Source: a virus
Taxonomy: Duplodnaviria; Caudoviricetes
Strand: one strand, 5' to 3'
IMG/VR virus record: IMGVR_UViG_3300010346_000241
Span: 64,001 to 128,000 of that record
Length of the DNA stretch: 64,000 nt
Every line of letters begins with the position of its first letter. Position 1 is the stretch's first letter. The position numbers and the translations under genes were made by a program. Positions 30,714-51,680 of this stretch are shown here, piece after piece. The notes below the pieces were generated by a model. It saw only the letters and a program-made list of their open reading frames with translations, was not told where the DNA came from and did no database searches.

Positions 30714-31457
30714 TTATCTTTTAGCAAGCTCATCCATGAAGTCTGCTATTCCTTTCAGATTCTTGTCATCTTCATTGTTGTCTGGATCTAAATCTCTGCT
30801 CTTGCTTGTATAGGTGATCAGATAGAAGTGATCATCTTTATCTACTATCACCTGATATTCCTGAACGATCTTTGAAAGGTTTATAGAGAAGTCATAGTCA
30901 AAGAGCTTATAACCGAGCAGTTCTATATCGAACTGCCTCTCAAACTCTTCGATGAACTGCTCAGCCTCATATTTATCTGTTATGAGATTACAATGCTGAG
31001 TCTCAACGATGCCTGTTTCGATGTGAAACAGCGATAAGATGTTGTATGCTACGACATCATTGCTTATTCCGAGTCTCTTAAGAGTAGTTACATCATCGTT
31101 TACATACAGAGCAAAGACATAGTTATCTTTAGCTTCAATAGCTTTGATCTCTTTCTTGATATGTATAGGCCTCTTTATAGACCATGCATTGTACGCTCTG
31201 ACAACTTTACCATTATCATGTCTAAGCACGAAGTAGTAATCACCCATTACCTTATCTATAGCAAGTGTCATGATAGGCACTAACTCTATACAAGTTTCAG
31301 GTATACCGAGCGAAACTTCGTGTGTCTCAACGTTTTCGTATACTGGTTTGTCTCCATATACATAATCTATATGACGATAGAGCTCATACTCATCATCACT
31401 TATCTTATTGTACCAATAGGTTCCTACCAGTTTCTTGTTATCTGTTTCCTTACTCAT
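30714..31457 (-). CDS. Hypothetical protein
   Basis: AGGAG RBS before ATG 31457; follows dcd. Confidence 0.7.
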   Translation of the reverse strand: MSKETDNKKLVGTYWYNKISDDEYELYRHIDYVYGDKPVYENVETHEVSLGIPETCIELVPIMTLAIDKVMGDYYFVLRHDNGKVVRAYNAWSIKRPIHIKKEIKAIEAKDNYVFALYVNDDVTTLKRLGISNDVVAYNILSLFHIETGIVETQHCNLITDKYEAEQFIEEFERQFDIELLGYKLFDYDFSINLSKIVQEYQVIVDKDDHFYLITYTSKSRDLDPDNNEDDKNLKGIADFMDELAKR

Positions 31458-31470
31458 GGTTACATCTCTC

Positions 31471-48137: not shown

Positions 48138-48176
48138 AAATAGGGGGTGGCTGTTACGCCACTCCCTTATTTTTTA
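48138..48176. terminator. Terminator between convergent genes
   Basis: GGGGGTGGC/GCCACTCCC stem plus T-run. Confidence 0.7.
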
Positions 48177-50927
48177 TTCAAAGCTCCAGATTACGTTACC
48201 TGCTTCTGTGATGTGCTCCTTGTTTCTCAACCAGATAACATCACACTCATTCTGTGTATACTCACTGTTGTGAGAGATAAGTACACTCTGACTAGCATTG
48301 ACCATATCCATCAGACCTAAGAGAATGTCGAAGAAGCGTCTTCTGTTCTCTGTATCCAATGAAGCATCTATCTCATCACCTACTATGATATTCATCCTAG
48401 TAGAGACCTGACTAAGCATACTGATGCTAATGATCATACTAATCAATGCTACCTGAGCAGATGACATAGAAGTTATATCATCGTGATTAAGTCCGCCCTG
48501 TACTGCTATAGGAATACGGAACTCATCTTCTGTGATGACGAATGGAAGTATGTTAAATGCTCCCCCGAAGAGTCCTGAAAGCATCCAGTTAGCCTTCTCG
48601 AGTATCTTACTCAGATACAGTGTAGCGAATACCAACTGTATACCAGTAGTAGGAGAAGTATAGTACTTGATGACCTCTATCTTATCAAGCATCTCTTTGT
48701 TGGCCTTGAGATCGTCTATGTATGAGCCATAGAGTCTTCTAGACGTCTCCAGATCGGCCAATTCTTTTTTCATCGGAATGAGCTTCTCTTCGATTTCATT
48801 GATGCTTCCTTCACACTCATATATAGTCTTCTTAGCCTCAAGTAACTTAGACAAAGAGGACTCTAAAGTCATAACCTCAGCAGCAATCTCTTTGGCCTTA
48901 TCATTGAGTAGAGATAGTTTATTCATCTCTTCTATGTAAGCATGAACTTCTTCAAGCTTTCTTTCATCGGCCGTTATAGCCATATCGAGTTGAGCTATCT
49001 CATATCTATTGTCTTGAGTCTTCTTAAGAGTAATATCAAGCTCATTCTGAAGTTTGTTGATATCTTCAGTAAGCATGTTGATAAGCTGTTCATTAGACTC
49101 AAGTCTATCGATGTCACTCTGTATCTTTGAGAGGTTGTCTTGAATGTCCTTATACTCCTCGAATGAGTTAGCTACATAGAGATGATTGTAGAGGAAGTCT
49201 ACATACTGATTGAAGATCTCCATAGTCTTTACTACCTTACTATCTGAAGTGTAGTTGAAGTTGACAATGAAGTTGTATGCAGGCATGAACTCCTTAGGAG
49301 TGATAAGCTTGAGAGTAGATGAGATGCCGTTCACTTTAGCCTTAAGCATCTGAAGTTCACGGAAGCCATTCTCTACCCTTTCCATCCTCTCATACATAAG
49401 CTTAGCACCATTATACTCAGCAGTAGCGTTTCTGATGATAGACTCGTAGTCTTCATCACTACGATAGCTATCATACTCACGCTTCTTTCGTATAGCATTA
49501 GCGATGAAGTGACAATCATCAAATGTGCAACCATTAGGTCTAAACTCAAGAAGACCTTCAAATGAACTCTTAAGAGCTTCTTTAGTCTTAAGATCCTGCT
49601 TAACAGCATTGATAGTTTCTTTATGTTCCTCCATAGCTTTAGATGCAGCTTTCATGATAGAGAGTGAAGATAACTCTCCATCTCTTTCATGACCGAACTC
49701 TGATACACACTCTACAAGGAACTCTATATCAGCAAACTCTGATGATGAGAGTCTGTCTCTTACTTCACATAGAGTGCTGATACACTGCACAAGTGCGTCC
49801 TTAGTGAATGGAATCTCTAGAGTGTTGATGTTAAGCTTACTAAGCTCTTCTCTTATCTCACTGAACCTAGTCTGGAACTTCTTCTTAAGCTCTCTAAGAT
49901 ACTCAAGAGACTCACCATTGTTGACATCCTTAAGCTTCTGTCTCTTCTGGTTAATCTCTATAGTGTCAATCTCAGTCTTAGACATAAGAGTACCAATCTC
50001 TGTATTGAGTGAACTCTTCTTCTGTTTAGCAAGTTCTATCTGAGTAGTAAGATGAGCAGGATCAATCCTACATACATCTTGTCCTCTATACTTACGGTCG
50101 ATTACCTTTTTGGTCATTTCGATGTCACTCTCACACTTAGTCATCTCTGACATAGTATCAAGATACTTCTGGTTCTTAGTACCGTCGGGATCAAGAGTAA
50201 GAATAACTGCTTCTGCCTTAGACTTAAGGTCTTTCTCATCGTTGAGAAGCTCATCAGCCTGCTTAACTGCTGATGTGAGGTTCTGTATTCTAAGGTCAAG
50301 CTTACCTACATCACCTATAGTACTGAGACGACTCTCGATGTTCTTGATGACTCCCTTATACATGATACTCTTCTTGCTGAGAACTTTATACATGTCATTA
50401 TAAGCATCCACATTGTTAAGGATACTATTGACGAACTTCTTTCTCTCAGCAGGCTTCATATCTGCCATACCTCTCTTAGTACTACTAAGCTGAGTAAGAG
50501 ATAAGTAACAAGGATCAAGACTGAACTTGTCATAGATGATTTCCTTAGCAGAAGATACATTTCCACTAGGATTGAGATCAATCGCTGATGCTGGAGTAAT
50601 CTCATAGATGTGACCCTTAGGAGTAGCTCTATCTCCCTTAGAGTTCACTTCATAGACATACTCTATCTTATACAAGATACCAGTGTATTCGTCAAGATAT
50701 ACGATACACTTGTATGCTACCATTCCTGGGATGAATGCTGATGAAGGTTCTGGAAGAGGATTGAGTGCTTTCATGATTGTACTCTTACCAGAACCATTGT
50801 CTCCCTTAATGAGACAGATCTTGTGTTGGCATTTGGAGAAGTCGATAACAAGCTCGTTGAGCTCCATGCCATTGTATATACCTGCATAATTACGCAGTTC
50901 CAAGTAGTTTATACGCATAACGTTCAC
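48174..50927 (-). CDS. sbcC: SbcC/Rad50-like SMC ATPase (recombination nuclease subunit)
   Basis: Walker A GDNGSGKS, long coiled coils, central CTFDDC hook-like motif, signature MSSAQ, Walker B IIVGDE, LISH. Confidence 0.88.
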   Translation of the reverse strand: MNVMRINYLELRNYAGIYNGMELNELVIDFSKCQHKICLIKGDNGSGKSTIMKALNPLPEPSSAFIPGMVAYKCIVYLDEYTGILYKIEYVYEVNSKGDRATPKGHIYEITPASAIDLNPSGNVSSAKEIIYDKFSLDPCYLSLTQLSSTKRGMADMKPAERKKFVNSILNNVDAYNDMYKVLSKKSIMYKGVIKNIESRLSTIGDVGKLDLRIQNLTSAVKQADELLNDEKDLKSKAEAVILTLDPDGTKNQKYLDTMSEMTKCESDIEMTKKVIDRKYRGQDVCRIDPAHLTTQIELAKQKKSSLNTEIGTLMSKTEIDTIEINQKRQKLKDVNNGESLEYLRELKKKFQTRFSEIREELSKLNINTLEIPFTKDALVQCISTLCEVRDRLSSSEFADIEFLVECVSEFGHERDGELSSLSIMKAASKAMEEHKETINAVKQDLKTKEALKSSFEGLLEFRPNGCTFDDCHFIANAIRKKREYDSYRSDEDYESIIRNATAEYNGAKLMYERMERVENGFRELQMLKAKVNGISSTLKLITPKEFMPAYNFIVNFNYTSDSKVVKTMEIFNQYVDFLYNHLYVANSFEEYKDIQDNLSKIQSDIDRLESNEQLINMLTEDINKLQNELDITLKKTQDNRYEIAQLDMAITADERKLEEVHAYIEEMNKLSLLNDKAKEIAAEVMTLESSLSKLLEAKKTIYECEGSINEIEEKLIPMKKELADLETSRRLYGSYIDDLKANKEMLDKIEVIKYYTSPTTGIQLVFATLYLSKILEKANWMLSGLFGGAFNILPFVITEDEFRIPIAVQGGLNHDDITSMSSAQVALISMIISISMLSQVSTRMNIIVGDEIDASLDTENRRRFFDILLGLMDMVNASQSVLISHNSEYTQNECDVIWLRNKEHITEAGNVIWSFE

Positions 50928-50947
50928 AACGTCCTTTCTCGCTAGAT

Positions 50948-50959
50948 TATAGTATTGTT
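50948..50959 (-). promoter_or_regulatory. Late promoter AACA-N6-TA
   Basis: AACA-atacta-TA upstream of sbcC. Confidence 0.7.
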
Positions 50960-50997
50960 AACGTACGTGTTTGGATTGATTATGGAGGATGCACTAA

Positions 50998-51030
50998 AGA
51001 AAAAAGGAATGGAGTCCCTTTCGGGACCCC
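50998..51030 (-). terminator. Intrinsic terminator
   Basis: GGGGTCCC-GAAA-GGGACTCC hairpin followed by a T-run on the minus strand. Confidence 0.75.
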
Positions 51031-51122
51031 TGAGTATTAAGATGTTGTAAACCATGAGTAAGGACAAGGTCTACTAAAGGCTAGAAGTTATAGTGGGTTT
51101 ATTTTGGAATAGTTTGTTATCC

Positions 51123-51316
51123 GACGGAGCGGACACGATAGATAGCTTCAAGAATGCTTTAGCAGTGACTGACAATCAAATACTTCCTACATCTGTTACA
51201 AGCTGCTCAAACAGGACGATTTACTCGCAACATGTATCGGTAAGCGCAGAGTGGTAACTCTAAGGGGATTAGAAGAGAAAACCCTGACTTGAAACTATCT
51301 ATCCTATCCGTCCGTC
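51123..51316 (-). ncRNA. Candidate 194-nt structured non-coding RNA (6S-like architecture)
   Basis: ~28-bp closing stem; second long apical stem; G-U wobbles favour the minus strand; the predicted +1 of AACA-tatcat-TG is exactly the first paired G (51316); no ORF. Confidence 0.7.
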
Positions 51317-51327
51317 AATGATATGTT
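51316..51327 (-). promoter_or_regulatory. Late promoter AACA-N6-TG
   Basis: AACA-tatcat-TG immediately 5' of the structured RNA. Confidence 0.7.
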
Positions 51328-51342
51328 ATACTATGTGTAACG

Positions 51343-51576
51343 TTATACATATGCATTCAAACCTCTTAGACATATATTAGCATACAGTCCCATTGACAGA
51401 GGTCTAGGAGCTTTAGGATTCTTCCAATCTATATCGAACTCAGCACCACAGTTCTTACACCGCATACACCGAGCTTCTTTACCTTTACGAGTACTTACTA
51501 CTATGATCGCTAATCCATCAGTACCACAATTCGTACAGTACTTAGGTCCAGCTATCTTGAAAAGTGGCTCTGACAT
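51343..51576 (-). CDS. Zinc-ribbon protein (77 aa)
   Basis: CTNC..CKNC; start refined to 51576 (AAAGGA RBS); similar layout to 56751-57167. Confidence 0.7.
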   Translation of the reverse strand: MSEPLFKIAGPKYCTNCGTDGLAIIVVSTRKGKEARCMRCKNCGAEFDIDWKNPKAPRPLSMGLYANICLRGLNAYV

Positions 51577-51680
51577 ATTATCACTTCCTTTCATCAGATA
51601 GTTACGCATACTGTAAAAGACGAGAATGACGCCCGAGGGAGCGCTCCCTCGGGCACCACTTATGTTCATATTCACCAGGA

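Follow-up and report, generated by a model that had tools for sequence, protein, structure and literature searches.

The intergenic interval that separates a zinc-ribbon protein gene from an sbcC-like ATPase gene in an uncultured jumbo phage, probably of rumen origin, is very probably a real, selected, strand-specific RNA element. It combines a constant frame with an exchangeable part: a closing helix maintained by compensatory changes begins at the predicted first nucleotide of a late-type transcript, and the segment enclosed by this helix is unstructured beyond chance and is exchanged between phages as a cassette. The interval would be the 5′ domain of a non-coding RNA (ncRNA) that is transcribed late and as a unit of its own, and it belongs to an uncatalogued phage ncRNA family that is not 6S-like. 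As for the function, we tentatively read the element, with a probability of roughly 0.45, as a natural paired-termini RNA with a swappable specificity loop, which most probably is antisense to a host RNA or to one from a competing mobile element.

The window analysed here is a stretch of 64,000 nt from the IMG/VR record IMGVR_UViG_3300010346_000241 (positions 64,001-128,000), and the virus record as a whole comprises 229,448 bp. The genome is of the 229-kb AR9-like jumbo phage type. A nucleotide search of cultured phages gave no relative, and the cultured matches of the SbcC-like neighbour, AR9/PBS1 and Staphylococcus jumbo phages, are just 23-27% identical to it. The features of the region are collected in Table 1.

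Table 1. Features of the RNA element and its neighbourhood, in coordinates of the window.
Feature	Position	Strand	Basis or remark
Zinc-ribbon protein gene, 77 aa	51343..51576	(-)	Upstream neighbour
P1, late-type promoter match AACA-TATCAT-T-G	51316..51327	(-)	Sequence; predicted +1 G51316
5′ arm of closing helix, 29 nt	51288..51316	(-)	Folds, pair counts; begins at predicted +1
Loop cassette, allele 'A', 135 nt	51153..51287	(-)	Hypervariable; no structure beyond chance
3′ arm of closing helix, 30 nt	51123..51152	(-)	Bulged C and G/G mismatch
Conserved G-poor single-stranded 3′ extension (CAAACUAUUCCAAAAU...)	51075..51122	(-)	35 distinct tails aligned; unpaired in full-length fold
Small tail hairpin GUAGACC / GGUUUAC	51047..51074	(-)	Folds, alignment
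P2-like motif AACATCTTAATA, good late-consensus match	51035..51046	(-)	4 nt before terminator hairpin
Intrinsic-terminator-like hairpin (51030-51011) and U-run	51000..51030	(-)	Predicted RNA 3′ end
sbcC-like ATPase gene	48174..50918	(-)	Downstream neighbour; own promoter AACAATACTATAA at 50959-50947

The downstream neighbour is annotated through phrog_77 as a palindrome-specific endonuclease subunit. Its true start is ATG 50918 and not GTG 50927, because an indel parts the two codons in relatives. About 80 nt located 5′ of sbcC (50916-50995 (-)), including the promoter AACAATACTATAA and the 25 nt before it, are nearly invariant across 35 distinct versions, while the coding flanks diverge by as much as 15%. 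On the other side of the element, a 16-bp terminator-like hairpin at 51625-51660 (-) parts a holin-like gene from the zinc-ribbon gene, for which no recognisable late promoter of its own was found. A palindrome (TATGTGTAACGTT / AACGTTATACATA, 51332-51351) overlaps the zinc-ribbon stop codon just upstream of P1; its arms vary among relatives with some compensation, and it has AACGTTAT(A/G)C(A/G)TAT in common with the sbcC start region (50911-50924). In Bacillus phage AR9 (L071, 115107-115748), the same order of the Zn-finger protein followed by SbcC is found, without a long spacer in the syntenic slot and with a YbiA/NADAR-family gene filling the place of the RNA, which suggests that the slot between the two genes is an accessory or counter-defence position.

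A sequence-only reading of this DNA had proposed that the two ends of a minus-strand RNA pair with each other over about 28 bp, and the folds bear this out: positions 51316-51288 form 28 pairs with 51152-51123 (-), interrupted by one G/G mismatch and one bulged C. The minus strand of the 205-nt stretch (51123-51327) has a minimum free energy (MFE) of -74.7 kcal/mol (z = -6.8), a stability attained by 0 of 200 dinucleotide shuffles, and the plus strand of the same stretch reaches -59.6 kcal/mol (z = -3.9). The closing helix is the best and cleanest long-range inverted repeat in the 229-kb genome, and the element is present in a single copy in the virus record.

Relatives were gathered by means of the 77-aa zinc-ribbon neighbour, which falls into one 90% cluster of 41 members, and the contigs of these members were searched. 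This gave 58 element copies in 27 distinct versions, most of them from metagenome assemblies; one related record is labelled 'bovine metagenome'. Across the 27 versions the closing helix is kept by compensatory changes, so that a conserved, covarying stem is indeed present. Pairing is retained in 97.3% of the 742 cells of the helix alignment, with both-side changes in 9 of the 28 pairs, while slid controls show 28-40%. Four of five pairing measures were reached by none of 500 shuffles and the fifth by 5 of 500. The bulge and the G/G mismatch are conserved in position, and the bulged base is C, U, or A depending on the version, with co-variation at the paired positions.

The helix extends well beyond the close family. 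Three more distant relatives, L059, L060, and L062, whose SbcC proteins are 78%, 71%, and 52% identical, respectively, carry a G·U-rich helix of 23-29 bp with a different sequence, and synteny with sbcC is conserved down to the 52% level of SbcC identity. At 45% (L063), sbcC is present and the element is absent. The earlier assignment of the RNA to the minus strand, which had been argued from G-U pairs, also stands: two U·G pairs are found in the minus sense, and the plus strand folds worse. Within the close family, G·U occurs at 8 stem positions and A·C cells are rare; the stems of L059, L060, and L062 contain 3-7 G·U pairs. The gene-sense strand folds better than its complement in 5 of 5 lineages, with values in the other four of -51.0/-32.2, -61.5/-39.5, -51.1/-43.1, and -58.6/-54.6 kcal/mol (sense/complement); in L062, both the strand margin and the z-score are small.

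The late promoters of AR9 have been mapped, and their consensus is AACA-N6-TA/G, with the last base being the transcription start site (TSS) (PMC5312081). P1 fits this rule with the less common G as its last base. The placement of +1 on G51316 by a phage late motif, as read from the sequence before, was upheld: AACA (51327-51324) is followed by N6 and T-G, and the predicted +1 coincides with the first paired base of the helix. The genome has its own promoter class, AACAtctnaGTAA, located about 25-35 nt 5′ of start codons, and its upstream regions bear a strong AAGGAGG ribosome-binding signal. TA occupies the last two motif positions in 41 of 54 promoter-like sites of this genome; P1 departs from the dominant ...TAA form, a G being found at that position in just 5 of the 54. 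P1 itself is invariant in the 27 versions of the close family, one N6 change being seen in L047, and AACATAT..TG is kept in relatives with 52-78% SbcC identity. Moreover, the coupling between the promoter and the helix survives changes of the stem sequence: in L059, L060, and L062, three lineages whose stems differ, the G of this motif is the first base of the helix, and L047 is similar, with the predicted +1 one base before the first pair. Some late motifs of the genome lie in the loops of terminator-like hairpins (G000:C1:32490-32560 and 83985-84030, outside the window); a transcript starting from such a motif would hold the 3′ half of the hairpin only, which would amount to a compact terminator-promoter arrangement.

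A late motif with its last base as the TSS and a terminator downstream is the organisation of an AR9-type late unit, and transcription of the element is predicted on this ground. The unit looks autonomous because terminators precede P1 in L059, L060, and L062, where an extra one lies just 5′ of the promoter, and because, in every copy, the tail is followed by a hairpin resembling a terminator. Unlike these three relatives, the window phage has no terminator between the zinc-ribbon gene and P1. Judged from these signals, the element would be transcribed late and on its own as an ncRNA of ~310 nt, beginning at G51316, the predicted +1, and ending at the terminator near 51000; this full-length unit folds at -104.3 kcal/mol. 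The 3′ extension is kept in L059 and L060, i.e., down to 71% SbcC identity; the terminator hairpin of the same two relatives differs in sequence with its pairing kept. The P2-like motif is unchanged in most relatives, including those at 71-78%, and deletions of 1-2 nt disrupt its spacing in L015, L032, and L047-49. A transcript from this motif (predicted +1 at 51035) would begin with a complete terminator.

The part of the RNA enclosed by the helix behaves differently from the frame. An apical helix and small hairpins had been drawn there, and they do appear in the MFE structure, where the interior is multibranched; yet on its own the 135-nt interior folds with z = -0.57, a stability matched by 50 of 200 shuffles. 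The loops of four other alleles folded alone give z = +0.17, -0.09, -0.26, and +0.93, and RNAalifold applied to the A/B alleles yields a different interior fold with one compensatory pair only. No motif common to the loop alleles was found. The interval had been described as ORF-free, and in agreement with this no ORF is conserved among the alleles on either strand. A 73-aa database 'protein' (P0172, L002:3653-3900 (-)) corresponds to the antisense reading of the tail, the 3′ arm, and the loop in B-type copies; it is most likely a gene-calling artefact, since the ORF is interrupted after 7 codons in the window.

The loop alleles (A, B, C, D, those of L059, L060, and L062, and the mosaics L065 and L068) are about 60-165 nt long and are mutually unrelated or only partly related; none of the alleles C, D, E, F, and G is related to allele A. 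How they are distributed is best seen by comparing individual phages. L012 and L013 share 95% identity in their flanks (1.5 kb per side), and their loops have no similarity, whereas L039 and L012, with flanks just 86-87% identical, carry loops that are 96% identical. Loops thus move independently of their flanks, in the manner of a cassette that comes in discrete alleles and sits in a constant frame. Swapping of alleles could also stem from recombination at the inverted repeat, without selection on the loop.

Comparison with catalogued RNAs gave no name for the element. No Rfam family matched the window region (E <= 10) or five relatives (E <= 1), and neither a tRNA nor a tmRNA was found at the element. 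The fallback offered by the sequence-only reading, a new phage RNA class, is therefore tenable in the sense that Rfam has no match, while nothing points to the packaging or virion RNA it had given as examples. Domains of reverse transcriptase (RVT_1), TROVE, RNase III, and dsRBD are all absent from the phage genome. An integron attC-like site was considered and set aside, as relatives do not preserve the R-box consensus. In the literature, we found no natural paired-termini RNA described for phages. Few jumbo-phage ncRNAs have been characterised, and to our knowledge none of them joins a constant, covariation-supported clamp to a loop exchanged as a cassette.

A search for RNAs with which the loop might pair was carried out at several levels. 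The phage's own 229-kb genome holds no site complementary to the loop, and loops or their antisense peptides gave no genuine match in phage records, plasmids, or IMG/VR. One 20-nt exact IMG/VR match (L072), located within an ORF of 519 aa in an unrelated phage of high GC content, is a chance one because the alignment does not extend. An allele-C pattern, a back-translated motif, and a peptide-based locus search retrieved nothing or only the phage itself; the antisense peptides had no match among the Pfam, NCBIfam, and PHROG families or PDB sequences. Among 1.8 billion protein representatives, only the phage's own antisense ORF and one weak repeat-protein match, which was discounted, were recovered. 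Mimicry of a template-strand promoter by UGUU motifs of the loop was considered as well and dropped as numerology. On the antisense strand, the A/B loop core has protein-language-model neighbours in the HTH_17, Tn916-Xis, and AlpA clusters, with scores of 0.83-0.89 that fall below the 0.9 lead threshold of the tool. The antisense strand of this core thus bears a weak resemblance to the C-terminal half of an excisionase-type HTH, and the target of the A/B alleles may be an excisionase-type gene.

The reading of the element as a natural paired-termini RNA is drawn from the clamp that starts at +1, the unstructured exchangeable loop, the 3′ extension, and the terminator, all of which match the design of engineered paired-termini antisense RNAs (PTasRNAs). 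Selection keeps the frame, that is, the promoter with +1 at the first base of the helix, the helix of 25-29 bp, the G-poor 3′ extension, and the terminator. The 60-165 nt inside the helix have neither structure nor sequence of their own to preserve and pass between phages as a cassette. According to this proposal, the helix would clamp the ends of the RNA and display the loop in single-stranded form, so as to act by base pairing, and the target would lie outside the phage genome, in a host RNA or one from a competing mobile element. A more specific version, which we consider possible but rather doubtful, is that the element serves as a programmable weapon against mobile elements: loops would be captured in antisense orientation from genes (e.g., excisionase) of islands, satellites, or prophages that reside in the host and hamper the phage, and these genes would be silenced late in infection.

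Several other explanations account for parts of these observations. The conserved tail may be the active part: the 3′ extension would then work on a phage mRNA or protein, the helix would guard the RNA against 5′-dependent nucleases, and the loop would be a neutral filler. Conservation of the tail down to the 71% relatives and its unpaired state in the full-length fold speak for this explanation, and so does a perfect 15-nt complementarity between the loop and 3′ half of the tail hairpin (51064-51050) and positions 31446-31460 (-) (BLAST E = 0.012), which covers -4..+11, i.e., the ribosome-binding/start region, of the gene 30717-31457(-). This gene encodes an unannotated protein of 247 aa without a Pfam or PHROG family, in which MSK[E/D] is kept at the N-terminus throughout the close family; in a second complete genome (L069), both sides have one change and still pair, through G·U, a comparison that spans two genomes only. 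However, L059 and L060 lack the complementary tail loop and carry UUCUCAA instead, and a global duplex scan does not single out this gene (-31.7 vs. -31.6 kcal/mol for the next candidates). Action through the tail also leaves unexplained why a loop of 60-165 nt is retained and why a 96% identical loop recurs across backgrounds differing by 13%, and on balance it is unlikely. We regard it as improbable that double-stranded RNA as such is what matters, the 28-bp helix serving host RNase III or another dsRNA-binding factor as substrate or decoy (a processing stem or a nuclease/defence sponge) and the loop being irrelevant. The helix is the only strongly conserved structure, with its bulge and G/G mismatch fixed in position, which would suit such a role, but the phage has no RNase III or dsRBD protein, and intact cassette alleles together with a conserved tail would remain unaccounted for.

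The inverted repeat might instead function in DNA, as a cruciform or hairpin hotspot of recombination, a protein-binding repeat, an invertible segment, or a MITE-like insertion. Inverted repeats do flank a variable segment here, binding of a single protein would also make the arms co-vary, the adjoining sbcC as a hairpin nuclease gene (phrog_77) might matter, and ssDNA could form G·U pairs too if the phage DNA contains uracil as in AR9. A MITE or an invertible segment would be recognised by several copies or by both orientations; the element is single-copy, and all 58 loci are collinear, with no allele flipped. The wobble pairs are strongly biased to one strand, the unit lies between terminators, and the helix opens at the predicted TSS in three lineages and one base away from it in L047, all of which makes a role in DNA very improbable. 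There is still less reason to see in the element a cis-acting leader of sbcC, in which read-through from P1 past the terminator would place the 5′ helix on the sbcC mRNA to stabilise or regulate it. The location directly 5′ of sbcC in the same orientation and the synteny maintained to 52% SbcC identity would fit this, but a terminator lies between, sbcC is served by an invariant consensus promoter of its own, the element is missing next to sbcC in the 45% relative, and AR9 has a protein gene in the slot. Least credible of all is the 6S-like decoy put forward in the sequence-only reading, i.e., an RNA that mimics an open promoter and sequesters the RNA polymerase (RNAP) of the host or of the phage. 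Similar length and paired 5′ and 3′ ends are what the two have in common. The layout of a closing stem, bubble, and apical stem is not a property of the element, because the interior is unstructured beyond chance, with a differing RNAalifold fold, and other alleles have unrelated interiors; those of 118-142 nt differ in layout as well. The cmscan check gave no 6S model at E <= 10, and the wholesale replacement of a non-conserved interior between near-identical phages is hard to square with a precise RNAP-binding fold.

If the loop of the proposed paired-termini RNA indeed base-pairs, the element would be a natural version of a design that was engineered independently, and it would give a lytic phage a new means of targeting RNAs of its host or of parasites without a protein partner. 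The loops would then point to the rumen hosts or competitors of the phage, and phage-borne knock-down tools could be built on the scaffold. Should the use against mobile elements prove true, loop swapping would be the trace of an arms race, and the element would be an RNA-only counterpart of a phage-borne CRISPR array. Even with a neutral loop, the element is a clean, well-bounded new RNA family that provides a testable promoter/5′-end rule for the RNA polymerases of AR9-type phages.

Among known systems, 6S RNA (Rfam RF00013 and related models) resembles the element in being non-coding, about 190 nt long, and paired at its 5′ and 3′ ends, and differs from it in that the element has no conserved bubble or apical stem, a hypervariable interior, and a long 3′ tail past the closing stem. 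The c4 RNA of phages P1/P7 and the CI RNA of P4 exemplify the natural antisense RNAs that act in trans in phages and plasmids to determine specificity or immunity; they are small untranslated RNAs whose specificity resides in short complementary stretches that differ between related elements; they are processed from longer transcripts and target sequences in the same element. In contrast, the genome studied here holds no site complementary to its own loop, and the variable part is the whole loop of 60-165 nt within a constant clamp. Y RNAs and adenovirus VA RNA are rods with a terminal stem formed from both ends, conserved bulges, and a variable interior. Unlike in Y RNAs, the stem sequence of the element is not conserved as a Ro-binding site would be, the genome has no TROVE domain, and the element has no match in Rfam, which should contain the Y RNA models. 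In the msr-msd ncRNA of retrons, inverted repeats (a1/a2) likewise close a variable interior, but no RT gene follows the element and RVT_1 is absent from the entire genome. A phi29-type pRNA is equally not indicated, given the lack of an Rfam match, the AR9-like genome of 229 kb, and the interior that is not conserved.

The closest likeness is to the engineered PTasRNAs (Nakashima, Tamura & Good 2006, PMC1635301), in which paired termini of 21-57 bp enclose an antisense loop of 29-147 nt; pairing of the ends makes the RNA more stable and presents a long single-stranded loop for base pairing, and a 3′ extension is helpful. The element has the same parts, namely a strong promoter, a dsRNA clamp, a large modular loop, a 3′ extension, and a terminator. 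Its helix around the payload exceeds 21 bp (28 pairs, and 23-29 in distant relatives), and its loop is both unstructured (z from -0.6 to +0.9 in five alleles) and exchangeable as a cassette. Paired-termini antisense RNAs constitute a design class and not a homology family, and the likeness is to be understood accordingly: PTasRNAs are synthetic and have a designed target, whereas the element is natural, with an imperfect stem and a late-type phage promoter.
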